Assembly (NCBI GenBank): GCA_008632985.1
Contig: QPGO01000121.1
Span: 248,001-268,569 of the forward strand
DNA length: 20,569 nt
Source of the DNA: Psammoneis japonica
Lineage: Eukaryota
Direction: 5' to 3'
Part shown: piece after piece, positions 1 to 20,569 of the stretch
How positions within the stretch are numbered: the stretch's first letter is position 1
Layout of the letters: each line of letters starts with the position of its first letter
Notes under the pieces: model-generated
What the model was told of the DNA's origin: nothing
Database searches by the model: none
Seen by the model: only the letters and a program-made list of their open reading frames with translations
Made by a program: the position numbers and the translations under genes

Positions 1-825
1 CGTTTGTTCCACGACGTTTGCTGCGACGTCTGCGCGTTTCGCAGACACTTCTTTAATCTTGAACCACCCGGTTGCTGGGTCAATCATTGTGACTGCCCAC
101 AATTGCAAGGTGTCCTTTCCGCGTCTTTGAATTTTACATGGCCCTGTCACATCTGTGCATGGAGTCTCCCATGGAATTATCTCTGCGACCTTTTCTGGCA
201 ACTTCCCATGATGCTGCGTTCGGCGTTTTGTCTTCTGGCATCGATCGCACTTGGCGCACGTAGAATGCACCGTAGACCTCACACTGGGCCAACAGAAGTG
301 CTGGGCAATGGATGTTTCCGCACGTGTCTCACCTGGATGACACAGTGTCTCGTGGCACCATTCAGTCAGCGGAACCTGTGGTGCTGCGATTTTGTCCTTG
401 TGACAGATTAACTGTCGTGATGACCCTCCCCCATGATGCGCACGAATGGAGCAGTCAGACGAGTCCTTGGCTCTTGAGAGCAGGCGCTTGTCCTTTTGTT
501 GTGCTTTTTGAATGCGCTTGAAGGTGCTGAATGAGCCTGCCACCGCGGTCCAGTTTGTCTCAGCCGTTGAATGGCTTCGCAGACGTTTGCAGCATCGACT
601 GTCAAGCAGAGCACTGCTGGCGCCACCATCTGGCAGTGCCTCAATGGTTTGAGTCTTGCCCTTGCCATGTTTGGCATTCACAGCTGCAAACAAGATTGGA
701 GTGAGATGAGTCTTTTTAACTCGTTTGCGGGATTGGCCTGCAACACGTGTACGATGGTAATCCAGTTGTTCATTTGTACATTCATCTGATGTGCCAAAAC
801 TGCCTGTGTCGTGTCGGCCCCCTTC
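1..825 (-). pseudogene. pol: Gypsy pol remnant: N-half of aspartic protease fused in frame to integrase (HHCC zinc finger and start of core)
   Basis: Manual translation of minus 825->1 has no stop: IEALPDGGASSALL (cf. ALLDSGAS), WTAVAGSFST|FKRIQKAQQKD, then WCHETLCHPGETR...QHFCW...CAKCDRCQKTK...HGKLPEKVAEIIPWETPCTDVTGPC...TMIDPATGWFKI. Not in the ORF track. Confidence 0.88.
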
Positions 826-1902
826 TCAGGCGTCCGAATCTTCGGAATCACTTGAGTTGAGGTCGCGGAAGTGATTGAGCTCCTCCTCGCGGGCCTTGCG
901 CTTTTTCTGAGCGTTGGCAAAGAACTCCTTGACCTTCGATCCGACAAGAGCATCAATGTCTTCCTCATTCCGAGGTTTTGCATCAGGCTTGCCGCCTCTG
1001 TCATTGGAATGTCCAGTCTTGACACGTTTCACGTGGTGCTTGAGCTGACGGCAATCCTCCGTATGATGTCCACAGTTGATCCTGCGCAGCATGCACGACT
1101 TCTGGGTGTTCCGTTGGGTCGTGATCAACGACTCAGGATTGTCCGTTCTACGTCCCCGCTTACATGGAACCTTGGCATGTTGGTCCTGGTTGCCTTCGGC
1201 AAGCTCGACCTGCTCGATGCGCTCGCAGAACTGCACAAATTCGGCGACAGTGTGCGCCAACGGGTCAAAATTCTGTAGCGTCATGAACTTCTGCCATGCG
1301 TTCGGCACACCGCACTCGAACATGTCGCACAGTTCGTCATTGGGCAATGGTGCCGGTGTTTCTCCATCCTCCGTCACGGGTGGAAACTGAGAGATGTGGC
1401 CGTTAATTTCAACAGCCCTCGCGACGTAGTCACGAGCAGAAACCTCTGCGGGCTTGCGCATGAAGCGCCGCAGATGACGCTTCTGCAACAGTGCCGCCCT
1501 GTGTGGGAAGATACTTTCCTTTAGCTTCGCGATGCATGCTGCGCACGTGGCGTTGGTTTGGCATGCCTGCTTGTCAGCGGCATTGTCAAATGACGTCAGA
1601 GCATCGCCCTGTGGCAGGTCATGCACAAGGGCAAATTTTGCTGGCCCGGTCGTGATGTTTTGTCCTTCATGCGCGCGATCCACGTTGTGCAGAAAGATTG
1701 GGAGTGTCTCGCATGTAGCCGCAGAAAGGTGCGGGATGCCCATCTCGTGCGTTGGACTGTCCGGATCAGCGGGGTTGTCACGCAGCTTGAACGTCTGGCA
1801 CTCGCCCTGCTGCAGCTCTTTCTTCTCTGGCCGTGCGAACGGAATCGGCGGCTCAACCCGCTTCTTCATGGTCATTTTAAGACTGTTCGGTCCTGCCAAC
1901 AT
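826..1902 (-). CDS. gag: Gypsy Gag (hypermutated; 1 Tyr in 358 aa)
   Basis: Motifs PPIPF.RPE, FKLR..P, GQN.T.GP, GDAL..F, FP.RA..QKR..RR..RKP, VP..WQ, FCER.E, as I recall them from diatom gypsy Gag; degenerate Cys/His knuckle (CMLRRINCGHHTEDC); lies directly upstream of and in frame with the protease. Confidence 0.8.
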   Translation of the reverse strand: MLAGPNSLKMTMKKRVEPPIPFARPEKKELQQGECQTFKLRDNPADPDSPTHEMGIPHLSAATCETLPIFLHNVDRAHEGQNITTGPAKFALVHDLPQGDALTSFDNAADKQACQTNATCAACIAKLKESIFPHRAALLQKRHLRRFMRKPAEVSARDYVARAVEINGHISQFPPVTEDGETPAPLPNDELCDMFECGVPNAWQKFMTLQNFDPLAHTVAEFVQFCERIEQVELAEGNQDQHAKVPCKRGRRTDNPESLITTQRNTQKSCMLRRINCGHHTEDCRQLKHHVKRVKTGHSNDRGGKPDAKPRNEEDIDALVGSKVKEFFANAQKKRKAREEELNHFRDLNSSDSEDSDA

Positions 1903-2000
1903 TTCGTAGTTTCGTTTCTGTAGATTTCGTCACCTCGCACAACATGCGGGAGCAATGTCACTGTGCCCTGCGCATGCACCAGGCGCTGAAAAAGAAGATG

Positions 2001-2237
2001 TGTTACGACTTTGTCGTTGTGAAAATTGTGAGCTAGTTTAGAGCAGAGAAAATGGGATCGTGCGAATGGGGAATCTTGCCAAATCCCTGTTCGTTCGCAT
2101 TTGGATCGCATCAAATCGATCGTGCGTTCGCATCATGGATCGTGCGAATCAAGCCATCACGCGCCATGCACGAGTGATGTCATCGTGTGGAATCACGCCA
2201 CCATCGTGGGCCAGACGACGGGCTAGTGTGCTTCACA
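2001..2237 (-). repeat. Putative 5' LTR of the gypsy element (~237 bp)
   Basis: Bounded by TGT (2001) and ACA (2237); CpG-rich with internal repeats GGATCGTGCGAAT (2055, 2137) and CGTTCGCAT (2092, 2125); ~100 bp upstream of gag. The partner LTR is outside the window, so the ends are unconfirmed. Confidence 0.55.
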
Positions 2238-4423
2238 CGGATGCTCTCTTGGCATCCTTCTGGAATTGCCCAAGACCCAGAGCCATGCCCTCCTGTGGTC
2301 GTGCTTCCCAGGCACGTGTTAACAACACCACGTTGCCACGTACAAGAGGCTTGTGCATGGTCTTGCCATGTTGTCCAGCAGCGAGGCATGCTGCACTGAG
2401 GCAGAGAGAGGTGCATGCCTGCACACTGTCCTGAAGAGATTGCATTGTCAGCATCTCTGTGGCATGACCTGTGGACAAAAGGTGCCACTTGATGTGACCA
2501 CAGATGTGGGCCACAGATGAGGATGTTGAACCATGGAGCAAAGAAGTCCTTGAATGTGTGTCCACCACCATGCTGATGTTTTCCACACACAATGATCTGA
2601 ACCCACTGTCATCTGAAATTGAACAGTGCAGTTGGAGGGCACACATGACCAAAGAATGTTGGCAAATTGTTGGGAGCTAAGCCGCAAGTTGAGGCAAGAA
2701 AGAATGTTGTCATTTTGTCAGAGAATGCAACTGTGCCAATGAGCACACAAACAATGAATGAATTGCTGGATCAAGGGGCAATGAATTGCAGTTGGATCCA
2801 GACAGAAACAGAAATGACACCGAGTTGCACAGACTGCCGGTTGTCCCTTGTCCCACCTGTGGTGTGGACAAATTTGGGGTTTGTGGTCCCCTTGTGCAAC
2901 TCAACACCAGTCACTGTCCTGAAGTTAAATTGAGAGATGCAGATGGCATTGTTCACAATGCCACAAAGCTGGCATTGTTCTTCCACCATGTTGCGCCAAC
3001 CACAGGAGCCCTGTGCACAGGTGGTTCTGCCACAGAGTGGAGCTCTTTGATGTGACTCCCAAGACAGTCAACGGCTAGATTGTGGACCTGATTGATGGCC
3101 CACACTCTTGAATTGTAAAAGAGAGAGGATTTGTTGCACTCATGTGAAGTGTTTTGTGGAGTGTGTGCAAGGCACATCACACTTGTTTGATGACATGGTC
3201 AACTTGCTCTGATGATGGACAGCACACCAACTTGTGCAGTTCTAAGTTGAAAGACATCAGCTGCAAAGCAACAGGTGTGCCTTGCAATGACATGGTTGCT
3301 GTGCCAAAGGGATCAGTTTTCCCTCAATGCCAGCCAGCCCCAACTGGCTGGTGGTGGAAGTGGCAGGAGTGGCAGGAGTGCATTGGAGTGTCTGGATTGT
3401 TTGGTGACTCTTTATGAGCAAGAGGCTTCACCATTTTCAATCTCTCACCTTTCAGTTTCATCTTGCTCTTTGGAGTGAATTGTTGTTTGGTTTGCATGAT
3501 TTGTCATTCCACATCAATGGGCAGCTGTTGTCCTGCAAGTTTACAGCTTGTTGCATTGACACCTTCAGCAACCCACAACCATCACAGTTTGCCAAGGCAG
3601 GTGCACCAAGCAGTGCACAAGAAGCCTGATGGAATTCTCTTTTGGTTGCATTGACTTGCCAGCTCAGTGAGCATGTTCCAGCTTGGTTTTGGAAAGTTGC
3701 TCCACACAGCAAAGCATGCTTCATGTGTGCAAAACAATTTTGCTCCATGACAGTTCCCTCTCCACATCATCAAACAGTTTGCCAAAGAGACTCACCTTAA
3801 AAAGCTTTGTCCACTCCAGGTGCATTTCCAGTCCTCCTCACCCATCATGTCAACACAATCCTCCAGCAGCAGCCCATTGATGCCCCCTGCACACCTTTGT
3901 TCATGCAGGATTCTGCCAATGAGAAGAAGAGAATGAAATGTTTCTGCCACAGTGTGTGCCATGCAAGGAGAGTGGCAATCATCCCCAGTGGTGCACGGGC
4001 AGTGGAGCAGGTTTGCAACCTGCCTTGCACATCATTTCATGGAGATTTGCATGAAAGTCTTCACCCCACCACTGAATGTTGGCAAAGTTGCTGTTGCAGA
4101 GTTGCACCACATGTGCCTCTCTGTTGATGCAGTGGAAGGAGGCTGTGCACCCAGAGCTGACCCAGAGCTGAGTGTTTGTGTTTGTGCAGTTGATGGTCAG
4201 GGCTTCTTTGACTTGTGTCTGAGCTGGCTGTGCAAGCAGAGCATCTTGAAGGCACCATGGTGGAGATTCCGGCATGCATCACCAGATGTGCCCAAGGACT
4301 TGCCGTGTCTGTGTGTTGGGGAGACAATCCAATCTGTGGGGCTCAACATGCTTTTGTGCAATGAGTGCACCCACAGACCTTGCAACTGCAGGGCACCAAC
4401 TCTCAGAGGCATCATTTTGGTTG

Positions 4424-4660
4424 GTGTTCAAGAAGAGACTGTTGCAGGGTGTGTGTGGGGCTGCTGGCAAAACAAAGTCTGTCCATCAGTGTGCTTGCCA
4501 GGGTGAAAAATTCTGTGACCTGGACCCATCACATGCCATGGTCAGTGTTCAAGAGAAATGGTTGTGGGGTGCATTGGTGGGGAGCACAGCTGGCCAAACA
4601 AAATCTGTCTGTCAGTGCACTTGCTGGGGTGAAAAACTCTGTGACCTGGACCCACCATCA
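4424..4660. repeat. Diverged tandem duplication, ~121-126 bp unit, 2 copies
   Basis: GTGTTCAAGA at 4424 and 4545; GGGTGAAAAA.TCTGTGACCTGGACCCA at 4501 and 4627. Confidence 0.85.
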
Positions 4661-4916
4661 CGCATTGGCAAAATGTGATGCTGATGCCAATGGCAGTGAA
4701 CGGTTCTTGTGTGCTTCCGTTTTGTGAACTGCAATGTGTCCAAGGACACCTTGTGTCAACAATGCCAGCCATGTCTGCTGTGCAGGCAATGATTGAAGAA
4801 GCTCTTTCCACCAGCAAGGGCAGCAAAGCATCGCACACTTTGAGTGTGATGTGGCTGCTGGCCGGGCTGGGCTGCATGTGTGTGTGACCTGTTTGTTTTT
4901 GTGTGCACTCAGAGCA

Positions 4917-4998
4917 GGAGAAAATGTTGCATGGCAGCGTTGAAGGAACAAGAAGGGGAGAAAATGTTCTTGCATGGCTGCATTGAAGGAACAAGGAG
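4917..4998. repeat. Tandem duplication, ~40 bp unit, 2 copies
   Basis: GGAGAAAATGTT...GCATGGC.GC.TTGAAGGAACAAG at 4917 and 4957. Confidence 0.85.
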
Positions 4999-5849
4999 TG
5001 TTGGTGTGTGCTTCTCAATGTTGCACAATGTGGTGGCTGTGAGAACCCCAAACATGTTTGGGGAAGAACAGGCAGGGTGAAAATGGCCATGCCAGCCTGG
5101 TGTGATGGCACTGCCTTTTCCACCACAAGTGGTCTCATTTCCTGAGTCCATCATGCCTCTGCAAGCTGATCCCTTGTTGGAGCCATCCTTTGTTGCTCAG
5201 CTTGCCAACAACCGGAGGCCTCTGGCAATGAAGCAAGTTTGAAGCTCCTCCCCAGTCAGCACAAGTTGGCAAGTGCTTTCTGCCTCCCAAGGGCACAGCT
5301 GTCCTCACAGAACAACAAGTGGTGTGAGAACATGCCACAATGAATGGAGAGTTGGTCACAAAGCTGCAGGCTTTTTACCCTCTTGCTGTGGAGCAGAGGT
5401 GAGCTGGGTGACTCCTCTGAGAAGTGAGCATGCTTTGTGGCTCACTCTGACATGCAACACCATCACACAACTTGGGGTCTAAGACAGGTTGAGTGAGTTT
5501 GTCCAGAGCAAGGAGAAAGCAACTTTGAGGTTGGACAAGACAGCACTGGGCTTGGGCTGTCATCAGAGTGCCAATGCCTCTTGAAAGAACACTGCAAAGT
5601 GGCCTGCAAAGATCTGCCAGCTTTTGTGAAGCATTGCATGTGAGATGACAGAGATGCAGACAACTGCTCATCACTTTTTTGAGTGGATGAGATTGGGTGA
5701 CTTAGAAGTGTGAGAGGGAGTGGCTGTGTTGTGAGTGCCTGACTGCTGAGGCCCAACCTGATTTGCACCACAGCAGGGCCACCAAGCCTCATCCATGCGT
5801 GGGTTCACAGTGGTGCTGCTCTGTGTTTTGGCACTTTGCTCAGACTTCA

Positions 5850-6330
5850 TTCTCCCACACTTTCTCGCCAGAAAACTCAGCTCCCATGCCACTCTGGCTG
5901 TCATGAACACTGCCTGCTGATTGAACATCCAACAATCATTCTTGTGTTGGGGTGTGTGATCTGCAATTGCTTGCACATTTGTTGAATGCAGTCCCCTCTG
6001 ATTGACAAGTGGTGTGTTGGGGTTCTTGTGCTCACAGGAAGTTGCCCTGGAGCATGAGTTCACATGGCACAGCCATCTGCAGCTGCCACACAACCCAGGT
6101 GCATCTCAGGAAAATTGTTTTTGTTTTTCAAAAATTGATTTGCCAGAGATTGCAGCCCCACCTTGGTTGTTGTTGGAAAGTGTGCAGTGCTGACATCAAC
6201 TTCAGTGATGGCTTTGAAACAAGCAAGTGAAGTTCCTTCTAACATGCACAAGTCAAGGATGGATCTCCATGCTGTGGTCTGATGAAAGTGGCTTGCATTT
6301 CCCACACTTCACCATGTTGTTTGACCTGCC
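5850..6330 (-). pseudogene. PIF/Harbinger (DDE_Tnp_4-like) transposase relic, frameshifted
   Basis: Correctly ordered motifs across frames: GCVAAADG (6095-6072; cf. GCVGAIDG), NP...NQRGLHSTNVQAIAD (6003-5959; cf. NRKGxYSxNVQAxCD), GSVHDS (5914-5897). Boundaries approximate. Confidence 0.65.
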
Positions 6331-7369
6331 TTGGAGGAGCACCCCCTGGCACACTTGTGTGTTCATCAAGCCCTTCTCAGGGCTGTTGTGCCAACACAAG
6401 AGGCTGCACATTTGAAGCTTCAAATGCCACCAGTTGGCCTGTGCCCTGTTGCCAGGTTGAAAAAACTGCCAATTTTTCACTGGGGCCAGGCTTCTCATGG
6501 GGAGACAAGCCACAACTTTCTGACAAGTGGCACATTTGACTGGCTGCAAACATGTCTGCAGTCAACAAGGTAAAAGTTGTGCATGGCCACAACCATTGTC
6601 CATGTGCTTTGTCATGTCTTTGGAGCAGACAAAGTTCAACCTGTCACCAAAATTTCATTTTTGGTGAACACACCCACCCAGTGCAATGAATCCAAATCCA
6701 GGTCATTTTTGGAAGCACACAGATCCATCTTTAAAGCATGACCAAGCCCAAGAGCAAAAATGAGTCCATGCAAAGGACAGCCTCCAGCCCCCTTGCAGCC
6801 AAGTTTGACCTTTTCATTGACTGCCAGCAGCTTGTGGTTGCTTTCTTGCTGCTGTCAACCTTCTTCCACTGGTTGTGTCAAGCAGGTCACAAAGAATGCA
6901 TCTTGCATGATGCCACTCACAGGAGGAGCACACAGCCAGCTGCTCACATCACTTCTTCTTTGGTCTCACTGCCACCAAGGTGTCAAGAGCAAAAGACACT
7001 CTGTTGTGGATGCCATTGCAACAAATGCAAAACAGTTGCCACTTTTGCATTGACAAGTGGCAAGCATTTGTTGCAGCACATGCACACAATCATCACTTTG
7101 TGGAGATTGGGTGCCCACCTTGTGACATTTGACAATGCAAAATGACCCTCACTGACCATTGGGTCACTCTTCTCTTCAGCCATTGAAAAATTTGAATGCG
7201 CTCATGCAAGATTGGCGCAATGGTCATTTGCTCTTCACCTCATGCTCTTTCTCATTCTTCCAAAGAGCAACCAAGAGCAACAGCCACAAGCAGACAGATT
7301 TTAATGCTGTCATTTTGGTGCAGAATGCCATCTGCCATTCTTGTTTGTTCACAGGAGGAGCCATGCCAC

Positions 7370-9505
7370 ATGAATGCTGCACAACATGGAGCCACCCCAG
7401 TGGCACAAGGGGGTCAGAATGCCCCAAACACAAATGCAGTGGCACCACAGCCACAGGCGTCAGTGCAGCAACCAGCTGCAGCTGTGGGGAATGCACTGCC
7501 ACCACTGCAAGTCCCTGTGCCTCCCCACAGCCCAGGGACACAATTTGCAGGACCAGGCCAACCACTGCCACCACTGCCAGGAGGCATCCCAGTGGTGCTT
7601 CTAGCACTGCCAGTGCTGTGGAACCCTCAGAACCATTTTTTGTCAGATGCCAAAGACCCACACCATGGTGACTGCACCAAAGCCATCCTGGATTTTGCCA
7701 TGCCCATGCAAGGAGCATCACGGCACAACCCAGGTGCGCTGCATGACAGGGTTGCATTGGCCTCAAGTCATGACCTCCCAATGACAATCACACTTCATTG
7801 TCATGCCAATGGCACCACCAACAAGGGGCAAATGCAGGCATTGCATCAAGTCTCAACTGGCCCCACTGCTGTGGTGGGACAAGCTTAACCATGGGACAAT
7901 GGCACATGTGCTGTCATGGGCGATCTGACATGCAGCCAATTCACACTCATGGAGTTTGGGGAAGATTTGTGTGCTCCAACCAATCAAGGGACTTGGGTTC
8001 TGACACACAACATGCTCCAAGCAGACATTGCAGCCACACAGAACAGCCTCCATGCATCTGCATGTGCAAGCTGATGCACAGGACTCTGAAGAGGTTCAGA
8101 CATGCAATGTGATGTTCGCGCCTTTCGAGTTTGTCTGCCTGTTCCTGCCTGCACCCCTTGGTCCAAAGGACATGCATGCAAGGGTCCATGGAGCAGCCAC
8201 AGCTGCCAACAAGCTTGCTGCACTGACGCCGCTTCTAGACTGCCTGCGGGTTGAGTGTTGCACCATGCAGAATGCACAGCTCCAGTTGGCAGCAGCACAG
8301 CCTTGGCCAACCATGACGCACCCTCCTGATGATGCACTGATCCATTTCTTTGATTGCAAGGTGGAACGAAACACCTGCCAGGCTGCAGGGGGGGATGCAG
8401 ATCCAACCACAGCAGTTCCAGCCCACAATTGTTGCCATCAAGGGACTCACAATGGAGCAGTGACAGCAGCAGTTGGATGAGGAAGCAAGGTGCATGGCCA
8501 CCCCATGAAGCAAGAGGCCAGCAGAGTTCTGGAGAGTCTTTTGGGTTGCAAAGATCCTGCGTTGGTGCCAGATGCACAACAAGGCTGCACCACCTTCACT
8601 GTGGTCCAGAATGCCATCAATGAGCAGCATCAAGCCCTTCAGGTGCATTTTGACCTGCCAGCAATGGCGAGTCTCGTCACCAAGTTGGCGCAACTTGATT
8701 TTGCAGGGTGCAACCAGGAGGAGCCCACCCAAGGCATCAACCCTTTCTTGTTCAGACTCACTGCCCCACACACAGCTGAGCAAATTGCCTGCCACAACTC
8801 AATGCATGTGCAGTTCCATGGAGAAGCAGGAGGAGTGCCACAGCCACAAGATGTGCAGGCACTCAAGGCACCAGACAAGGCACTGGTGGCAACAACTGTG
8901 CAGGCAGCTGTGCAATCACATGATGGATGCCACCTCATCTGCTCCACCACTCTGGGTGAAAACCACCCTGTTGTGCAATGGCTCACTCTGCAGCATGCAA
9001 ACATGGACAGGCATGCCAACAAGCTGGTGCACTGGCAAACACTTCATCCGACCCCACCTGTTGACTTCCAGCAACATGCACAGGTCAAGCTGCATCATTG
9101 GTTCCTGTCACAAGCAACAGTGCACCAGGAGATCCCATTCATGGGGCACAACATCATTCACAAGGCAGCTGAGGGGGCAATGTTTTGGCACCTCAGCTTG
9201 CTGCCTGCCATGCTTCCCACCAGTGCAGTCGGTGTGACTTCACCAGAAGCTGCCAAGTTGGACATGGCGGGCACCACAGTGTCATTTGGAGCCCGTCTTG
9301 TGACCCGCACTTTGCAACACCATGCAATTGTGCCAACAGGCGCTCACATGAGGTAAAATTGCATTGCACCCAGGACAAGATCGAGCTGCCCAAAGACAAC
9401 CAAGGATGCATCCACTGCAACCCTTGCCACATCAAAGGGCAGTGCAACTCCAACTGCAGCTCCAGCTGTGATCACCACAATGACCTCACCAATGAAGAGC
9501 AGTGA
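7370..9505 (+). pseudogene. Probable DIRS/Ngaro-type (tyrosine-recombinase retrotransposon) ORF1/Gag-like relic with stops and frameshifts
   Basis: Consecutive plus-strand ORF pieces (7196-7888, 8028-8480, 8490-9356, 9185-9505) read as one protein: P/A/Q-rich N-terminus, DPHHGDC, PWD..GD, NVMFAPFEFVCL, LLDCLRV, GINPF, and a C-terminal Cys/His finger CNPCHIKGQCNSNC...DH. Family call is from recollection of diatom elements; no RT or YR domain is visible. Confidence 0.45.
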
Positions 9506-9992
9506 CAATTCCTTGCACAGGGCAAGAAACGCTGGAAGACTGAATGGGTCTTTTGGCAATGGCATGAGTTCGGGGGCCAGTTGCCAAGAGCCATCGTGTG
9601 TGTCGGCGGCACACTCACAACACCAAGAAATTGTGGAGAGTTTCAAAAGGCAGCACAACCACCACACTGCACATGGACAGGATGTTGCTGTTGCAATTTA
9701 CAATGACAAATTAGACAAGCACATTAAAGCCAACACAGCATCATTGCGTCATAAAGGACTCAGCCACTGAGGAGATTGGAGACCACCGAATCACATCTGG
9801 GGTGACGGAAGTGTGTGGTTGGGAGTGACAGGTGGCAGGAAAGTGGCGTGCAGTGTGCTGGGCAGTGAAGAGAAAAGGATTGGCCGATGGTGCAGACAGA
9901 TGGATTTGTGGAAGATGCACTGGTGATGGTCAGGTGTTGGGGCATGTCAGAAAATGAAGATGACTGGGTGGAAGAAAACAATGACTCCTCAC

Positions 9993-10189
9993 TGCTGTCT
10001 AAATGGCAGATGAGTCTCCATGCAGAGACCGTTGCAGGAGCCGAAAGACTGGTGTCGTGATGTCGGCACTGCTGTTGTCATTCTTGTGAGCTCTGTGGCT
10101 CGAAAGCAAACTGCATCGCGTGACGTGCACGGAACTGAGAGCACACATGATTGTGTGCGATGAACCAAAATCTTGTTCAAATCCTGTCA
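9993..10189 (-). repeat. Putative 3' LTR of the copia element (~197 bp)
   Basis: On the minus strand it begins TGACAGG immediately after the purine run GGGGAG and ends ...AGACAGCA at ~9993 (9996 is an alternative end). Confidence 0.6.
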
Positions 10190-12144
10190 CTCCCCAGTTT
10201 GCTTGAGGGGTCAACAGCAATGGATTCGAAGTCAGATTGGTTGAAAGCCTCGGGGTCGAAGTTCCAAAACATTAAAGGATAAAGGAGGTTCCAGACTTGG
10301 GAGCAACCCCAATGCTTGCTGAGGATGTCAGCCGGGTTGCGGGAACCTTCGACAAAGTGAAACTCGAGGAATCCGGAGGCAATCGCCTCACGCACACGAT
10401 GGAACGAGAGGGCAGTGTGTTGCTTGTGTAACTTGGAGTGCGGGATGATGGCACTGTCCACAACCGACTTGTTGTCCCCAAACATGTGACATGTTTCACG
10501 AATGGGAACGCCAAGGCAATGTAAAGTGATGCGCAGATCAATGATCTGATCGACACATGTCCTTGCGGCAACAAACTTGGATCCATGCATGGCAGTCTCG
10601 ACTGTTGCTTGTTTCTTAGAGAACCAATCAGCCGGAAACTTGTTGAGGAAATGGAGGATGCCAGTGACAGAGCGTCCAGTGAGCATGCAATGGAACAAGC
10701 TCGCATCGACACAGTGCGTGGTGGTGACGAACTTGCCATGTGGCTCGGGTGCATCTTGCGGGAGCAGCTCTTCTACCTCCCCATGTGCAGATTGAGCCCA
10801 ATCGCACACGGGCTTGGGAAGGTCCGAACAGTCGGGCTCCTCGGTGTGCACTCGAAGGGCGCCATGACGCATCTTGGAGAGGAATCCGCAGATGCGTTTG
10901 GCACGGTCCAGGTGGCCTTGATGGGGCGCTGCATGGAAGCTGGACAGGGACATGACAGCTGCAGCAATGTCAATGCGGCCCAGAGACACGGCCCATTGCA
11001 GGGATCCAATCAAGGACTGGAGCTGGTGGATGCCATCCGGTTTGAGCAATTCTGAGGTGTCGAGTTCAGGGTGGTCACCCTTGTCAAGGGGTGAAAGCAC
11101 ATCAGTGCAGGGCTTCTCCCCAAAGAGGCATGTGCAGTTGTCAACCATGCGCTCAATGTGCTTGCGGGGAGCAAGGCACAGGGTGCCGTCTGGGTCACGG
11201 GTGAAGTCGCAGCCAAGATGGAACTCCAATGGTCCAGTGCCCTTGAGCTTGAACTTGCACTTCTCCATGAGGGTGTCTGCAAAAACCTGGGGGTCCTTCA
11301 TGGCGAAGGCCAGGTCATCCACATGCACTGCCACGCATTCGCAGAGGTCACCATTCCTGCGCAGCCAGATGTCAGGTTCGGCCTTGCATGGGAAGAAGCC
11401 TTCGGCACGCAAGCAATTGGCAAAGCATTCATGCCATCTGAGACCGGAGCTGCGGAGTCTGTACAAGGCCTTGTGGATGACGAGGATGTGTCCTTCCAGG
11501 TCGCCAAACTCGGGGCCTGCTGCGATGCACAGTTTCTCCTTGGTCGCAGCTTCAAGGCAGGCATTCCCAATGTCAGTGGCCCAGGTCTCTAGTTCATTGA
11601 GTTTGGCCAGGAAGATCATCATTCGCAGGCCACGGAGGGACACCACTCCGGAATGGACACTGTCGACGGGCACGTCTGTGAGGTGTCCATCGGCGACAAG
11701 CCTTGCTTTGTGCCGTCCGTCATGTTTGATGTCGCAGACGAGATGTGCCCGGATCTTCTTGTGTCCTGATGGAGCACTGGAGTCCTTGTGGTGTCCGCAG
11801 TCGTGAAAGACCTCGCACTCATCAAGTTGGGTCATCTCGAGGTCCGTTGCGTCTCCCCACTTGCGGTTGCCATTGCACTCATCAAGGGCCATGGCATGCT
11901 TGTAGTCCCGTGGTGCTTCATGCCCGCACTTGTGTCGTGGCGCAGCATGAAAGGAGCGTAACTTGGCTTGGTTGGCCATGCGGAACAGCTTCTTCTGACG
12001 AAGTGCCATCTTGCAAAAACATCTCCATCCTTCGGTTTCTAGAAGGCCGTGCTCACGCGCGTAGATGGCACAGGTGATGGGGTCATCCTTGGCAATGATG
12101 GCAAGGGGTTCGGACGTGATCTCCCCACTCTCCCATTCAAGCAT
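10177..12144 (-). pseudogene. pol: Copia reverse transcriptase + RNase H (open frame, RT motif altered to HVDD)
   Basis: 655 aa: KARLVADG, TDIGNACLEA, KALYRLRSSG, VHVDDL, LEFHLG, SLIGSLQW...R.DI, CVDAS...RSVTG, W.SKKQ.TVETA.HGS.FVA, GDNKSV, H.VRE, NPADILSK. Only 4 Tyr. Confidence 0.93.
10190..10195 (-). other. Polypurine tract core (GGGGAG) of the copia element
   Basis: Minus strand AAACTGGGGAG|TGACA at the end of pol, the usual copia PPT/LTR junction. Confidence 0.6.
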
Positions 12145-13150
12145 GACGTTGTAGCTTGAGCCTTTCCAAGAGGGATCATGGGGTCACAATGGTCCTTCGT
12201 GAGATGCGATGTGTCGGAACTTCCAGAGAGTTGAGTCCTCGTCTTCTTGCTCAATGTGGTGCATGATGTCATTGCAGGCCAGGACTTCCTTGCATTCATC
12301 ATTGTTGATGGAGCAAATGAACTTGACCAGTTCAGGATTGCCTCTGATTTTCCAGTCGTGGTCCTCAACGGCTTTGACGATGCGGGCTCTGTGGCGTTGT
12401 CCATCCTCTTGTGGCTTCATGAGGAAGGTGCGTCCCACGACATCCTCGGGGTCAAAGACTGGCATTTTGGGCATCCTGATCGCCTCCCCATCTGGTGAAT
12501 CTGGCAAATTCTCGGAGTCGTGACGGGATTTAATGACAGGGTCAGCAGATTCCTTGTCAGGAGGATCAAGACGCAGGTTTGGAGCAGACGGATCACGGGC
12601 GGAGCGCACGTTGGAACAGCAGAGAATCTTCTGAGTGTCGTCAGAAAGAATCTCAAACGTCATTTGGTGACCAACATGTTTGGCGATGCCAATGAAGCGA
12701 CCACACAATTCACGGGATTCGGGCAGCCAGTCGGAATCATCCAGGTGGCAGAGCACACAGGTTCCCACCATTGAAAGCGGAGGAGCGGGCTGATGTCGGG
12801 AGCAGAGCCGGACAGCACCTCGGTGGGGGCATGCCAGTGGAGCTTGGCGGACGCCGTGTGGTTGAGCACAAAACACACGCACATCAGGGTGAGCAGCCAG
12901 GTGTGAGCCGGGGACCCAAAGCGATCCATGATGGTGTTGGCCATGGTCTTCACAGTTTTGTGGCGGTGTTCAGCAAAATTCTGATGCTGGTGATGGGGCT
13001 CGCTTTGCCAACCAGAGATGAAGAGGGCACGAAGGATGCCAAGAACCTTGTTGCTGATCTCAACCTGAGCACGGTCGCTGATGAGCTTGGACGGGGCACC
13101 GCGATTGCAAATGTTGTCTTTGAGGGTGTTGACAAATTCTTTGTCAGTTT
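12145..13150 (-). pseudogene. pol: Copia integrase core and IN-RT linker, with one frameshift (~12752) and one in-frame TGA (12186-12184)
   Basis: KTDKEFVNTLKDNICNRGAPSKLISDRAQVEISNKV...WQSEPHHQHQNFAEHRHKTVK...PDISPLLRFQWWEPV / HLDD...GRFIGIAKHVGH.MTF...HEGPL*PHDPSWKGSSYNV, continuing in frame into the 655 aa ORF. Confidence 0.9.
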
Positions 13151-13229
13151 TTTTAATTCTGCGATTGCTTGTGCTGAATGTGCCTGCATGTTTTTAGTGC
13201 CACGCTCTCCGCAGAACTGCCGACACACC

Positions 13230-15083
13230 ATGGCGTCTCGTTCCGTCGCTGATGGTGGCCATGCCCCCAACGACAACAATGACATCAACATGGCGGACGA
13301 CATCACTGTTGATCACGCATCCAACAAACCTTCTTCTAAACCGAAAGAGCCTCCCCATGTGGAGATCACCCCACGCTTTGACATTCGTGGCCCGGAGGCG
13401 ACGTGCAAGCCGATGACCCTCACCACCGCTCATCTTCAAGTTTTGCAACAAATCCCATTCACGTGTCACAACGATGTTCAGATCCTGGACAACCACAACA
13501 ACCAGATCACCAATGTCAACATTGCAGAATGGATTGCAACCCTTCAGCACGAACGTCACTTCACGATTTCTGCGACTCGCAGTGGAGAAAAACGCCCTGT
13601 CGTCCACCGCCTGTGCCACCGCATTTTAACCGAAGTCCCCCTTCGAGAGATCCGTTCTCATCCTCATGTTCAGAGCATTTTAGACTCAAACAACATGGGT
13701 TTGAAGCGCCACTGCTGGAATGAGTCAGTGATCGACACGGCGACTCCGGCATGTTACGTCGCTGCCCCATCCAAGCACACTCCAATCGACGAAGCCACCA
13801 AGTTGTTTGCAAAAGATCCAGGCGAATTCAAGTCCAAGATGCCGAAATTTCGTCTCGCACCTACCTCCATTCGTGCCGATAACGATCAATTGGCTCCTCC
13901 CCTTCGCACCGTCACTTGTGCCATCGAAGTGCAACAAGACGATTGCCGCACTGCAGGAAAAACCTTGCTGTGCGCCTCCAACAAGCTGCCGACACACATT
14001 GTCACGGCGAAGACACGGTGCATGTCGCCACTCGCCTTCTATAACACCGTCAAACTCCAAGCTCGTCGCAATCATGATGCTTGCGTGGTTCTGCTGTTGT
14101 GCACCTCCCCGGATGTGATGTTTTATTTGGAAAACCACATCAGGGCCATCTCCGGAGTGAAAGAGATCTGCAAGTCTAGCACCACCCCTGGTCGGTGCAA
14201 TGTGTTGGTCAAACGTACGGATTTCAAAGCTTCCCGTGCTGGTGTCTCTACATGCATCATGGATCAAATTCCAAATGTCCCCAAAGAATCTTGGCCGTCT
14301 CCTCCATTTCCCGATCAACCTCACGTGTCTGGTGTGCTTGACGAGCAGTCCGACACCAGCAAATCCATGGTGTCTGCGAGCATCTGCAGTTTGGAGTCCC
14401 CAACCTTCTCAGATGCATCTCCATTGACGGACACCCAGGCCTCGAGGTCAAACCGTCCTCCTCCTCCGGCACAGTTCACGGGCAGAGGCCATGGTCGTGG
14501 CAGCACCCCTGGTCGAGGCCACTCTCCAAGCCCGTCAGTCCCTCCGCAAATCTTCGCCCCCAGGCCCTCCTTCCAGGCAACTCCTTGCGGACATTCTGGA
14601 CACCCAGGAATCTTGTCCCCTCCGCATTCGTACGCTCAAGCGACTCAGTCGTCTACAAGTTCTTCCCTTGCGTCAGCACAGATGGCGGAAGTACAACAGA
14701 CCCCACCACAAATGCAACAGAAGAACGATGCGGCTCTAGCAGATCTCCGCCGACAGCATTCTCAGGACATGGAAGCTTTGCACAACACCTTTGCCAAACA
14801 ACACTCCCAGGACATGGCCACCATGCAATTTCAGCATTCCCAACAGTTGGCTGCAGTGCAGGAACAAATGAACCAAATTGTTCAACCACTTCAAGCAAAC
14901 CAACCCATTCAGAGTTCAGCCAGAAAACGCCCCAACAACATGGAAACTCCTGAATGCCCTGGCGACCACAAAGAACGGGAGACGGATTTTTGGGCAGGGG
15001 TTGGACTTCGCTGCCTCCACCCCCTCAAGAAATTGGGCGACCTCCTGACATTGTTTCCTCGCCCCACTCACCACTTGCGCTAA
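13230..15083 (+). CDS. LINE ORF1 protein (~617 aa from ATG 13230)
   Basis: 3' part of track ORF 12771-15083; globular N-half, P/S-rich region with GRG repeats, Q-rich coiled coil with three QHSQ repeats (~14750-14850); sits upstream of ORF2. The ancestral stop may have been earlier (e.g. TGG at 14991 from TAG; inference). Confidence 0.7.
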   Translation: MASRSVADGGHAPNDNNDINMADDITVDHASNKPSSKPKEPPHVEITPRFDIRGPEATCKPMTLTTAHLQVLQQIPFTCHNDVQILDNHNNQITNVNIAEWIATLQHERHFTISATRSGEKRPVVHRLCHRILTEVPLREIRSHPHVQSILDSNNMGLKRHCWNESVIDTATPACYVAAPSKHTPIDEATKLFAKDPGEFKSKMPKFRLAPTSIRADNDQLAPPLRTVTCAIEVQQDDCRTAGKTLLCASNKLPTHIVTAKTRCMSPLAFYNTVKLQARRNHDACVVLLLCTSPDVMFYLENHIRAISGVKEICKSSTTPGRCNVLVKRTDFKASRAGVSTCIMDQIPNVPKESWPSPPFPDQPHVSGVLDEQSDTSKSMVSASICSLESPTFSDASPLTDTQASRSNRPPPPAQFTGRGHGRGSTPGRGHSPSPSVPPQIFAPRPSFQATPCGHSGHPGILSPPHSYAQATQSSTSSSLASAQMAEVQQTPPQMQQKNDAALADLRRQHSQDMEALHNTFAKQHSQDMATMQFQHSQQLAAVQEQMNQIVQPLQANQPIQSSARKRPNNMETPECPGDHKERETDFWAGVGLRCLHPLKKLGDLLTLFPRPTHHLR

Positions 15084-15195
15084 CATCAATTTTCCGTCGG
15101 ACTTCACGACACCGGAGTTTTTCCTTCCAAACCAACACCAAGTTGATGCAGTGCTCTAAGCCTCAGTCTTCTCTTCGGAGGAGCATGGCCCAACA

Positions 15196-18100
15196 ATGAG
15201 TCGTTCGCCTTCCACTGAAGATCCAGCTCTTGCTTGGCAGAACATCCTAGATGGACGCAGTTGCCACCCTCCCACAGATCGTCGGATAGATTTTTCTCGA
15301 CTAAAGACCAACGCACCTGTGGGCGACGAACTCCGGCCCAAGCTTTCTCACCACACGCACCTTTATGCCTTCAATGCCAACAGTTGTAAATTCGACAAGC
15401 GTGGCGGTGACATGAACGAGTGCTGTCAACTCGCCTCCGAAATTCAAGCCGATGTCATTGGCATCTCGGAGGTGTGCCTCGACACCACCCAATTTGACAT
15501 TTTATCCATGTGTAGATCTGCCATTTCCAAGTCTTTACATCATGGGCGGTCCACCTTTTCAAGCAGTTCCACCACCTTTGCAACGCAATGCAAACCGGGT
15601 GGAACGGCCTTGTTGTCATGTGGCTCGATTTCTGCTCGCTTCCGGACTCAAGAATCCGACCCGCTCGGCAGGTGGTCAATTCAAGTCTTCGATGGCAGGA
15701 ATGGACGCCAAGTTATGTTTGTCTCTTGCTGTCGAGTTTGCGCTAAGAACCAACAACACCCAGGGAAGACAACGGCGTGCGCTCAACAATTGGCCCTCCT
15801 CCGGCAATTGGGGCGCCGGTCACTCGATCCCAGGAAGGCGTTTTGTGCAGACTTGTCCCGAGTCTTGCAGGATTTTCTGGTGGATTCCAATCGAGAAGTC
15901 ATTGTTTTTGGGGACTTTAACACTGATTTCACCTGTGACACTGACTCTTTGGCTGCCGTTGCCCAGCGCTTCAATTTGTCTGACGTCCTGTTTAACATCA
16001 TGGGCGACACTGAGTTCTCCACATGTGCCAGAGGTTCCCGGCGTCTTGACTACGTGCTGGCCTCTCCTGGCGCTCTTGCTGCAGCTCGCTTCGGTGGACA
16101 TGAAGCCTTTGGATGTCGAGTCACTTCTGATCATCGTGCTTGCTTCGTGGACTTTGACACTGCAGCTCTTTTCGGCAACCCGACTGTCAATTTACCCAAG
16201 GCATCCTTCAGGGACATTCAGGCTACGTCTGAACCACAGCTCACCTCTTGTCTACAGGCAGTCGGCCCAATGATTCAGAGTCGTTCGGCATTGCAACACT
16301 CTTTCCAGCTGCTGGAACTTGACGCTCCAGATCATGCTCTGGCTGAACGGTTGGACCGTGATCTCCTACAGTTCTCTCTTTCCGCTGCCAAGAAATGCCG
16401 AATTCATCGCGAACCCGACTGGTCGGTTGAACTTTCAGACCTGAGGTGCCGGGTGCACATCTTTTCCCGCCTCGCATCCATGATGAGGACAAAATTGGAC
16501 TGCGCATCACAGATTCGAGCAATGCGAGACAAACTGAGTGGATCCTTCACCATCCCCGACACTTTGCAAGGTTGTCAAGAGGCGCTGCGCGCTGCTCAAG
16601 ACGATTGCAAGCAACCAGCGGCTGACAGTGTCGTGCGCTGCGAAAGGGAAGTTTCCGAGAGGACAGCCGCACTCGATCTGGAAGGCACTGAGGAGTCACG
16701 TAAACAGGCAACTGTCTTGTGCAACATCCGCAAGGCAGAAGAGATGAAAAAGCTGTTCAGGAAGATTGACTCATGCCACACTCAGAGGGACACAGGCATT
16801 CAGAGCGTCCAAGTTCCCAGCAATCCTTCCATTCCTCCCAAAGAATGTCAAGATTGGATCGCTGTTGATGCTCCGGAAGAGGCAGCCACTGCTCTCCGTC
16901 AACGCAGTCAAAAACACTTCGGTCAGGCACAAGGCACCCCTCCAACGGCACCTCCGTTGTCCATGGACCTGGGCCATGAAGGTGACACTGTCATGGTGGA
17001 TCTTGTTCTTGATGGTGAGCATGACACGTCGGCTTTGAACAAAGCAACTGCCCTTTTCATCAACCACTTGCGTCGCCATTCCCCAGTCTCTGCACCGAAT
17101 CTTCCATCTGCATCAGATCTCGAAGGAAAAATAAAACGTTGGAAAGAATCCACCTCCACGTCCATTTGCTCCGGCCTCCACCCAGGTCATTGGAAAGCAA
17201 TGTATGCTCCTCATCGGTTCTCAGATGCAACTGATTCCGAAGGCAATCCCACCCCTGAACGTGAGGCCCTCGATGAAGTTCAACAATCCCTCACTCAAAT
17301 CAGGTTGAATCTGCTTAACTGTGCCCTTCGTTGGGGATGCTCCTTTCACCGCTGGCAAGACACTGTCAACGTGATGATCTTTAAAGAGCCAGGCAACAAC
17401 AAGATGCATCGTCTCCGTGTCATCCATGTCTGCGAAGCTGACTTTCAATTAATCTTGAGCATCAAGTGGCGCGCTCTGGCCCAAAACATGGAACACCGCC
17501 GATTGTGCAACTCGGGGATCTGCGGCACTCGCGCCTTCTTAAATGCCAACACTCCTGTGTGCCTTGAAGAACTCATGCTCGAGATTGGCCGTGCCTCCCG
17601 AAAATCCGCCATTCACAGCGATGATGATTGCACATCGTGTTGCGATCGGAATGTTCCCGCTCTGGTTGCAGTTGAGAGCCACAGCAATGGCGTGCCCAAA
17701 GAAGTCACTCAAGTCGCTGACGCTGCCATTCACAAGGCTCGCTGCTGGTTGCGAACGGTGCTGGGCCTGTCACTAACTTCTTGTTCTCACTCTGATGACT
17801 TCCCCATTTGTGGAACAGGACAGGGCAGCGGAAACTCTCCGTTTTGCTGGAACCAAATTTGCAACAGTCTGTTCCAGATCTTCAATCAACGGGCACATGG
17901 TGCATTTTTCGAGTCCCCAGATCACTCCCTCTCGCTGCAGATGTTCAATGGAGGATGTGTCGACGACACGTCCAAGCAGGTGAACGATTTTTGTTCGAGT
18001 CCTCAACCTTGTGTCCTCGATTTGGCTTTCAAGATGCAGGAAGATAATCAACTGTGGTGCGACCTTTTGAACGCGGCTGGCCACGAGTTAGAATTACCCA

Positions 18101-20569
18101 AATGCTCCTTCCACGCTGTCGAATGGATGTTTGCAGAGGACGGCGAACCTTACCTTTGACCCTGCAACGAGGACATTGACATTGAAATCTCTTCTGCAGA
18201 CCGCACCACGACTGGGTCAAGCAAACAATTGTCCGCATGCTCTTCTCACAAGACACTTGGACACTGCAAAGCTCCAGCGGGGACTCAAAAGACCCAGCAC
18301 TCGGCTCTGAAACAAAAGAGTGACGGCATTGCCCTGTTCCTTCGGTCTTGTCCTTTAGATCGACACGAGTCATGGACTCACCATTTTGCTTGTCATCTGT
18401 CTGCAACCACGTGTGTTCTCCCGAACACTCACTTCAAGGAGAAAGAGTTGCTCGAAGTACAGAGGAAGGCCATGCATGCCATTTTTGCCAAATGCGGACA
18501 CAATCGGAACTCGAAACGTGACGTCCTCTTCGGACCTCATTCCCTGGGAGGCGGAGGTTTCAGGTCTTTAGACGTGGAACAGGGTGCAGCGCAGGTTCTG
18601 CAGTTTCTCATCCACTGGCGGGGCTTTGGGCAACCTCAGGTGTTGTCGCGAATCGCTGTGTCGTGGATTCAGTTGCAGCTTGGCACAGGTGTGAGTTTTC
18701 TTCAGGACGTCCATGCCAAGCTCCCTCGTTCCGAATCGAAATGGTTCATGTCCTTGCGTTCATTCTTGGCCCGGATCGATGCCACCATCGATTGTGATCA
18801 CACTGGAGTGCTTCCACTCCAGCGAGACAACGACCAATGCATCATGGACGTTGTGCTTCAATCCCAGGCGTTCAGTGATCGTGAGATGCGGTGGGTCAAC
18901 TGCTGTCGTCTTCATCCAAATGTTTTGACTCTGTCGGATGTTGCCTCTCCGGATGGTTTTTCGCTCGATCCCTTTAAAGTGAACGGCCGATCGTTCCTTC
19001 TCAGCAGTCGCAGCACTCTGAATCCTGTCGAACAACAACGTCCATCCGCTTGGGCATGGAAACAGTGGCGTCGAGCCTGTTCCTTGTTTTGCAAACCAGA
19101 CTCGCTCGATCTACGACACCCTTCAGGTCAACGGGTTGTGCCAGCTACGGAAATGCGCATGACACATGTCGCATGTTACGAATCCTCCGAGGATTGCTTG
19201 TGCATTCGTGGAGATTCGGGTTTCGAGATTTTCCCAGTGCACCAAGGTTGTGCGGAGACTCTCACCGCTCTGGAAAACGTTCCAGATCTTTCCCCAGCCG
19301 CTTCCCCTGTGCCAGCAGATGCGACTACAACCGGTTTGTGGCGGATCAAGTCACTCGGTTCTCCAGCATCCTTGCCAACAGTCCCTCCCGTCCCGAATGA
19401 TTTCTTGGCCATGCTGCGGTCTCTTCCTCGGTGGGAATCTGCTCTGTTCGAAAAATTGCATTTACATTGGTCCACATTTGAAATCGCTGAGCTCCTCGTC
19501 ACCCACAAGGTTTCAGCAGCTAGCGACGGTTCGGTCCTCCATTTCAAAGGTGCATTCGGGTGGACGATTGCGATCGACGGGGTTCCTCTTGTGGATTGTG
19601 CCGGTCCAGTTTTCGGTTTTCGCCCATCGTCTTGTCATGCGGAGGCACACGGTCCACTGTCTTTTCTCCGTTTTCTGATCCGATTGTCAGACTGTTGTTC
19701 TACACAGGTCAGCGGCGCCGATTTGCATTGCGACAATTCCGCTCTCATTCGCACCATCTCGAATTTCCAGGTGATTCCTCATCCTGCCGACGAGGAGGAG
19801 ATCCAAGGAGACTTCCACTGGCGTTTTCACATTGCTGGCACTCTCTCTCCGGATTGGGACATTGTCAATGAGGTCTTCCATTCCCCAAGACAGCTGTCAG
19901 AAGCACGCACTGATGAACTGTCGTGTCCTGCAGTCGAGATTCACTGGGTGAAGGGACACCAAGACGACATTCTTCCCATTGACTCTCTCTCTCAAGCGGC
20001 AAAGTTGAACACACGTGCCGACAGACTCGCTGGACAATTCCAAGGTCGATTTACGGGCGATGCTCTTGCTGCTCCCCGCATGCCTCATTGCCGAGCAAAC
20101 CTGCTTCTTCAAGGAGCCACTGTTTCTTCCAAATGCAAGCCGGTCATCAGATGTCAGGCATCGAGTCCCGCACTGGTTCAGTGCATGAAAGAGAAACACA
20201 GTTGGTCCGACGAAGTGTGTGCATCGATTGATTGGGACGTTCATTCGAAATTGATGTCACAAAACATTCGTCGAAAAGTCAGTGCCGTCAAGCTGGTTCA
20301 AGATCTTCTGCCCACCAACAAGATTGTACACAGATGCAATCCGACACATCCGGACTGTTGCACTCACTGTCAGGACCCCATGGAAGACAGAGATCACATT
20401 CTCCGTTGCCCTCATGATGAAGCCTGGCGCAGAAAATTTTTACAAGGATTGCGCAAGAAGTGCGATGATGTTCACACGTCTCCTTCCTTACGAGACTTGA
20501 CAATTTCGGCTGTTGAAGCATGGTTTCGAGGCGAGCTTTTGCACTCGGAACAATTTCATCACAGCGTCG
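15196..20569 (+). pseudogene. LINE ORF2: AP endonuclease, reverse transcriptase, RNase H, CCHC knuckle; one in-frame TGA at 18157-18159
   Basis: APE: FNAN, DVIGISE, PGGT, DPLGRWS, GDFN, RLDYVL, SDHR. RT: KEPG...LRVIH..EAD, DCTSCCDR, GTGQGSGNSP, GCVDDT, LELPKC. The same frame continues after the TGA with no stop to the window end (manual translation): KTLG, FGP.SLGG, ASDGSV, GAFGW, AEAHG, CDNSAL, DWD, HWVKGHQD, LNTRAD, C.HC....EDRDHILRC. Confidence 0.92.

Follow-up and report, generated by a model that had tools for sequence, protein, structure and literature searches.

The copia copy and its setting

The stretch of eukaryotic DNA analysed here, 20,569 bases long and called the window throughout, consists of transposon debris. 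Four pieces can be distinguished in it: a gypsy-like fragment, a single-copy relic, a dead retrotransposon of the Ty1/copia type and a retroelement of the long interspersed nuclear element (LINE) type (Table 1). Almost all TpA steps of the window have undergone a single A:T-to-G:C transition and have become either TpG or CpA. The strand is chosen site by site, and the product is never hit again. In the copia even the catalytic motif of the reverse transcriptase (RT) is affected, as YVDD now reads HVDD (CECVAVHVDD, consensus YEYVAVYVDD).

Table 1. Positions of the elements and their parts within the window
Feature	Position	Strand	Evidence
Ty1/copia RT-RNase H frame, dead, 668 codons	10177..12183	-	Pfam RVT_2, E 3.9e-22
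copia pol upstream of the RT	12184..13181	-	tblastn of homologues reaches 13181
copia 3' non-coding end, probable single long terminal repeat (LTR)	9339..10176	-	summed contig depth 18,000-87,000
LINE-type retroelement, runs off the window	13341..20569	+	Pfam Exo_endo_phos, E 6.6e-13; tblastn cover 15193-20559
high-copy gypsy-like fragment	1..2668	-	Pfam Integrase_H2C2, E 1.8e-9
single-copy relic	2669..9338	.	depth; TA and CG near-absent
sole internal duplication (4463-4532 vs 4589-4658)	4463..4658	+	self-comparison

The copia copy is recognized by its RVT_2-type RT with a copia-type pol upstream, and the pol is colinear with copia homologues over 10183-13181 (tblastn). The upstream part is set off from the RT frame by an in-frame TGA (12184-12186) and contains a frame break near 12720-12756. 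At E<=0.001, 1528 homologues were found. The best protein matches are 53-67 % identical, and the nearest labelled clusters are from diatoms (two labelled members only). The copy is 5'-truncated, dead and without a second LTR in the window, so that the LTR pair of a complete Ty1/copia element is missing here. The left limit of its 3' end is approximate, as it was set by a 667-base depth bin. Judged by depth, the family of this copia numbers hundreds of copies.

Depth is given as the summed depth of the contigs of one public run (X1), which is possibly the window's own sample. The stretch is present in a single sample, of 2019; next to X1, this sample has two further runs, all are DNA or presumed to be DNA, and no RNA run is listed as containing the window. 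It amounts to 16,000-39,000 over the gypsy-like fragment, 11,000-87,000 over 9339-13340 and 300-680 over 13341-20000. Over the relic most bins lie at about 55-200 and one lies at 565; the individual contigs of this single-copy DNA are at 46-65, and the depth to the left of the copia 3' end is about 58.

Loss of TpA and of tyrosine codons

Only 130 TA dinucleotides are left in the window, corresponding to an observed/expected ratio (o/e) of 0.11. TG (1.59) and CA (1.66) are in excess and occur in nearly equal numbers (2037:2123), CG is at 0.57, TC at 1.07, and the G+C content is 0.51-0.55. TA and CG have o/e values of 0.20 and 0.87, respectively, in the gypsy-like piece, of 0.15 and 0.83 in the LINE, and of 0.11 and 0.63 in the copia (0.13 and 0.64 in the RT open reading frame (ORF) alone). 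In the relic they fall to 0.04 and 0.09, with 18 TA and 40 CG left and with TG at 1.94 and CA at 1.98. The same RT region was compared in 80 environmental copia relatives: their median TA o/e is 0.745 (range 0.55-1.11) as against 0.13 in the window copy, none of the 80 falls below 0.55, and their median CG o/e is 0.85.

The loss is mirrored in the protein. The copia ORF contains 0.7 % Tyr, 4.5 % Cys and 6.3 % His, as compared to means of 4.4, 1.2 and 3.7 % in its homologues (120 listed of 1528). An alignment with 60 homologues gives 442 conserved columns, 25 of which are Tyr. In the window copy these have become 10 Cys, 7 His, 2 Phe, 1 Trp and 1 Leu, with 4 Tyr remaining. Tyr is thus lost at 21 of 25 columns and any other residue at 54 of 417 (363 retained; Fisher p 3.6e-14). 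Over the whole copia, a tally by tblastn of 119 homologues (one further homologue, P0064, being excluded) covers 29 conserved Tyr codons, including two additional Tyr-to-Cys codons in the upstream pol (12881 and 12276). Here, 13 codons have turned into Cys (TGC 11, TGT 2) and 8 into His (CAC 4, CAT 4), while 4 are still Tyr (all TAC). The remainder are 2 Phe, 1 Trp and 1 Leu. Arg (CGY), the product of a double hit, is found at none of the 29.

Along the gene, the outcomes follow the order CCHCCHHCCCHCHCCHCHCHC. Cys and His form 15 runs, as compared to 10.9 in shuffles (probability of that few or fewer: 0.99). The two outcomes are interleaved and not clustered, and no one-strand stretches are indicated. 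A preliminary description of this DNA had drawn attention to just this interleaving in the copia ORF, citing the motifs HKCGHEAP, CECVAVHVDD and HCVDA, all of which are present in the translation. Its fourth example, LHCLG, is only half right: the Cys does derive from Tyr, but the His derives from Arg (consensus LRYLG) by a CpG transition from CGT to CAT. The same description held that one base of each TA changes as the first hit destroys the target, with which the absence of CGY in both retroelements agrees. It had named a strong single-strand bias as one result that would overturn its reading, and had suggested looking for strand-coordinated runs. Neither was found, be it in the Tyr codons or in runs tests on TG and CA.

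P0064, a copia homologue in another public (ENA) record with a contig of 10,361 bases, displays a partial signature: its 26 conserved Tyr columns include 12 Tyr, 7 Cys and 5 His.

The LINE offers a second case, as its sense strand is opposite to that of the copia. For this element, 150 listed of its 5029 relatives (E<=0.001, full HMMER search) and three further LINE homologues, 153 proteins altogether, were aligned to the window. Among 348 conserved columns, 16 are Tyr, and these have become 10 Cys, 4 His and 1 Trp, with a single Tyr kept and no CGY among the 16. Other conserved columns were retained at 281 of 332, so that Tyr is lost at 15 of 16 and other residues at 51 of 332 (Fisher p 4.9e-11). 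Both elements therefore carry both products. Measured on Tyr codons only, the ratio of TA>TG to TA>CA on the sense strand is 13:8 in the copia (p 0.38) and 10:4 in the LINE (p 0.18), or 23:12 when combined (p 0.09). Neither ratio differs from 1:1; there is at most a mild lean and no one-strand signature.

A strand ratio taken from all replacement changes (33 A>G and 17 T>C at TpA) was dropped, as third-position changes are silent and skew the count. At the scale of 500 bases, TG and CA are locally unbalanced in 11001-13000 and 18501-20500 (chi2/df 2-3.5); on the plus strand of the copia, for example, CA stands at 1.8 and TG at 1.3. Read on its sense strand, the copia has an excess of TG (1.65) over CA (1.42), with baselines of 1.22 and 1.14 in its relatives. 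In the LINE the excess is not on the sense strand.

The spectrum of changes was derived from the inferred single-base replacement changes at conserved codons. In the copia, TpA steps account for 18 A>G and 10 T>C and CpG steps for 15 G>A and 4 C>T, to which 5 other transitions and 24 transversions are added. The corresponding LINE counts are 15 A>G and 7 T>C at TpA steps and 4 G>A at CpG steps, along with 7 further transitions and 17 transversions. In total, A>G or T>C is seen 28 times at TpA in the copia and 22 times in the LINE, as compared to 5 and 4 times elsewhere. By these spectra, two context-bound transition processes are at work, the one at TpA being the stronger. The conversion of CpG to TpG or CpA is a separate and slower process and the mark of cytosine methylation. 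With both running, old DNA is left with TG and CA as nearly its only pyrimidine-purine steps. Biased gene conversion could be ruled out as a cause, A>G and T>C being rare outside TpA. The same holds for selection against TA, as it is a dead gene that has lost catalytic residues through these changes.

As to the pace, the loss of TpA would be far quicker than ordinary decay. By a rough estimate from the medians of its relatives, the copia would still have about 15 % of its TpA but about 74 % of its CpG. The relic has 18 TA steps next to 1634 of TG plus CA; at equilibrium, this would mean that the destruction of TpA outpaces its formation at least about 45-fold per base.

The succession of TG and CA is random in all four features (runs-test z +2.0, -0.4, +1.3 and +1.5), whereas AG/CT, GA/TC, AC/GT, AA/TT and GG/CC are all clumped in the same test (z down to -8.9). 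The surviving TA steps are unevenly spread over their contexts: TAT/ATA is the rarest (17; TA/(TA+TG) 0.017), TAA/TTA the commonest (104; 0.108), and ATAT does not occur. This trend may hint at a context preference of the mutator that extends beyond the TpA step.

Other copies of the repeats were compared by way of the X1 contigs. The 40 best-supported of 2201 variant places between these contigs and the window were classified. Sixteen of them show TA in other copies and CA (11) or TG (5) in the window. At another 16 the window has CA or TG and the others CG; at 3 the window itself has CG, and 5 are other changes. The reverse case, with TA in the window and TG or CA in the others, was not encountered among the 40. 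At 945/946, 18799/18800 and 19473/19474 the window reads CA and other copies TG: the same step has been resolved to opposite products in different copies. Some losses are private to the window copy and others are widely shared, since the share of TA differs between places such as 854 (TA in 10,374 of 11,544 depth units) and 802 (808 of 4,705).

For the relic, X1 provides single-copy contigs of 576-3416 bases that match it with 0-14 differences; because of this agreement, its TA depletion is not a quirk of the assembly. Ten listed differences between the relic and an X1 contig comprise 5 of the CpG type and none of the TpA type. Between the two units of the internal duplicate, 11 of 70 positions are different. 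Transitions account for ten of these, and six of the transitions amount to three CA/TG swaps. The two units are identical at 84 % of bases and at 99 % of purine/pyrimidine letters.

Proposed mechanism, rival explanations and known systems

Taken together, it is probable that a TpA-specific process acting on both strands operates in the window at the level of DNA. Several observations lead to this view: the two products are interleaved and roughly balanced in two retroelements of opposed orientation, they are likewise found in single-copy DNA without retroelement genes, double hits are absent, and sister copies still carry TA. The preliminary description had already concluded from hits on both strands that integrated DNA had been mutated and not RNA or complementary DNA (cDNA), a conclusion that the opposed retroelements, the relic and the sister copies support. 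The process would have acted on duplex DNA of the chromosome once the copies had been inserted, and neither on the RNA nor on the first-strand cDNA of a retrotransposition cycle.

Mechanistically, one activity would suffice that alters the A of TpA on whichever strand it is met. Because TpA is self-complementary, A>G on either strand gives exactly two products, TpG and CpA. The most likely chemistry would be that of an adenine deaminase of the ADAT2/TadA type acting on DNA, with A converted to inosine and read as G. In tRNA, the target of these enzymes, A34, always follows U33 and thus lies in a U-A context, and TadA variants deaminate A in DNA. This chemistry is put forward tentatively, with the odds slightly against it. 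The process seems somewhat more apt to be targeted to repeats than not, and recruitment would then probably be to silenced or methylated repeat chromatin.

Editing before integration would act through an ADAR-type enzyme on RNA (UA to UI) or through a deaminase on cDNA, and the changes would be inherited by the insert. ADARs do prefer a 5' U (10.64898/2026.01.13.699255), and the Tyr outcomes lean to sense A>G, but sense T>C makes up 8 of 21 Tyr hits in the copia and 4 of 14 in the LINE, interleaved with A>G. Moreover, the strongest depletion is seen in DNA without a retroelement gene, and TG and CA are balanced over the window. Such an origin is very improbable. Even less credit can be given to an artefact, in which miscalls at modified bases, or errors of assembly or polishing, would have produced false TG and CA. 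It is true that base modifications can give context-specific miscalls in some long-read chemistries. However, the X1 contigs reproduce the TA-free relic (although X1, if it is the window's own sample, is not fully independent), they still read TA in other repeat copies, and the changes follow codons, from Tyr to Cys or His, in two unrelated elements.

A mutational bias of the whole genome deserves more attention. In this case every neutral TpA would decay fast to TpG or CpA, and the window would simply be old, unconstrained DNA without any recognition of repeats. All four features are indeed depleted, the single-copy relic included, TA and CG depletion rank the features alike, as simple age would, and the window offers no host gene for comparison. 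Yet in the gypsy-like piece about three quarters of the expected TpA have disappeared with the CpG intact (0.87, relatives 0.85), and at some sites, such as place 854, most of the depth of other copies is still TA. A rate of this kind, acting on the Tyr codons and the TAA and TAG stops of host genes, would presumably be a heavy load. The comparable process in the alga Bigelowiella natans is, according to the preprint, regional and runs at about 1000 times the rate seen elsewhere in the genome (10.64898/2026.01.13.699255). A genome-wide bias is therefore considered unlikely. An equally small chance is given to a lesion on the T side, where a thymine modified at TpA by a TET/JBP enzyme (5-hydroxymethyl- or 5-formyl-uracil or a derivative of the base-J type) mispairs with G, leading to T>C. 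As TpA is palindromic, such a T>C change appears as A>G when the opposite strand is read. In dinoflagellates, 5-hydroxymethyluracil is reported at both TpA and TpC. Unlike that pattern, TC is not depleted in the window, and the depth and contig total would suggest a genome near 100 Mb, unlike those of dinoflagellates. Thymine hydroxylation that silences transposons does nevertheless exist in that group (PMC11572971).

Even for the favoured reading, a DNA-level process on integrated repeats with deamination of adenine, several points count on the other side. Concerning the targeting of repeats, the most depleted stretch is single-copy today, and there is no host gene inside the window by which targeting could be told from a genome-wide bias. 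Concerning the timing in the copia, exact-seed repeats and a self-comparison in the purine/pyrimidine alphabet gave only the 70-base duplicate and no LTR pair, and none of the 40 classified places lies in 9339-13340, so none lies in the copia ORF. The CA/TG swaps of the duplicate may go back to CpG in the ancestor, and their adjacency alone has a P of about 0.1. The lean of 23:12 leaves room for a minor share of transcript-level or transcription-coupled changes. Finally, the enzyme is purely inferred, and deamination of A and a lesion of T are inseparable by sequence because of the palindromic nature of TpA.

Among known systems, the best match appears to be the TpA hypermutation of integrated viral DNA in B. 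natans (Mettrop et al., 10.64898/2026.01.13.699255). The preprint reports 302 new nuclear point mutations from 15 mutation-accumulation lines, 231 of them located in two integrated viral regions. A>G and T>C made up 230 of the 231, and all those transitions occurred on TpA, yielding TpG or CpA, at the roughly 1000-fold rate mentioned above and in some lines only. Reverse-transcriptase, endonuclease-RT and DDE domains were over-represented among coding sequences poor in TpA. As the enzyme, the authors suggest an adenine deaminase of the ADAT2 type, naming ADAT2/ADAT3 and TadA as candidates, and cite that amphioxus ADAT2 deaminates A in DNA (10.64898/2026.01.13.699255).

The window and B. natans, as described in the preprint, have in common the A>G and T>C changes at TpA, the presence of both products, the clustered depletion of TpA with a gain of CpA and TpG and, as it would seem for the window, a target that is part of the chromosome when it is hit. 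They differ in the DNA affected, which is viral in B. natans (nucleocytoplasmic large DNA virus (NCLDV) and virophage inserts) and consists of retrotransposons and a single-copy relic in the window. The degree of depletion also differs, with o/e values of 0.04-0.20 over more than 20 kb, near saturation, as against a Rho of 0.45 in the B. natans NCLDV region. In the window, CpG decay accompanies the loss of TpA; the term CpG is absent from the main text of the preprint. The random choice of strand at each site and the context trend (TAT rarest, TAA commonest) likewise go beyond the account that the preprint's main text gives of B. natans. The window may then represent the long-term, saturated end state of a B. 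natans-type process on retrotransposons, with CpG decay superimposed.

Fungal repeat-induced point mutation (RIP) also introduces dinucleotide-specific transitions into the DNA of repeats, on both strands, and kills transposon genes. Its chemistry is the opposite: RIP changes C to T and CpA to TpA, thereby enriching TpA and leaving AT-rich relics, whereas the window combines a TpA o/e of 0.11 with a G+C content above one half. A dependence on duplication, as in RIP, is not apparent in the window. ADAR and APOBEC enzymes share with the window transitions of the deaminase type concentrated in retroelements, and ADAR the 5' U; they leave, however, a one-strand signature and only reach elements that pass through RNA or cDNA, while in the window both strands are hit in an interleaved manner and DNA outside retroelements is affected too. 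The decay of methylated CpG resembles the loss of TpA in that a palindromic pyrimidine-purine step (CG) turns into TG or CA on either strand, and it is seen in the window (Arg to His or Cys; CG o/e down to 0.09). It cannot remove TpA.

Within the literature library that was searched in full text, TpA-specific chromosomal hypermutation is described only in the B. natans preprint (10.64898/2026.01.13.699255). The phenomenon has been reported once so far, in one alga and on viral inserts. To this the window adds a saturated end state on retrotransposons, a random choice of strand at each site and a process that outruns CpG decay. A wider reading is possible but doubtful: a RIP-like genome defence of opposite chemistry outside chlorarachniophytes, which would convert A to G at TpA of duplex DNA in transposons of every class and, combined with CpG methylation, produce silenced DNA free of TA and CG. 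If this were true, the TA- and CG-free state would remove Tyr codons, TAA and TAG stops and TATA-like signals. Should the lineage of the window differ from that of B. natans, the process would be widespread enough to count as a genome defence of eukaryotes in general. In that case its enzyme, a natural adenine editor of duplex DNA, would be worth finding.

The remaining pieces and their open reading frames

In the LINE, the Exo_endo_phos match (an apurinic-type endonuclease domain) lies at about 15370-16134 within a plus-strand ORF (15160-18159). The switch from high-copy copia to low-copy LINE occurs at about 13340, inside one depth bin; either the LINE was inserted into the copia at this junction or the copia copy ends here by truncation. 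TA and CG are a little better preserved in the LINE than in the copia, as expected of a younger insert. In the gypsy-like piece, the integrase zinc-binding domain, of the gypsy type, is found at about 220-366 within a minus-strand ORF (1-825).

The relic yields no Pfam family at E<=0.01 and no recognisable retroelement gene. The preliminary description had taken one of its minus-strand ORFs (5671-6105) for a DNA transposon relic. This identification finds no support, as the ORF gave no Pfam match at E<=1, no atlas match and no homologue at E<=0.1 among longer proteins. A scan of the window for tandem repeats returned only short arrays of about two copies.

The composition of the window also affects the prediction of genes. 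On both strands, 860 of the 1033 stop triplets are TGA, next to 104 TAA and 69 TAG. Stop-to-stop ORFs of at least 80 codons number 118 in 20.5 kb, some of them overlapping on both strands. Because only TGA remains common as a stop, long false ORFs arise in all frames, and gene finders would over-call genes in such TA-poor DNA. One ORF of 795 codons (12696-15083, plus strand) lies partly antisense to the copia.

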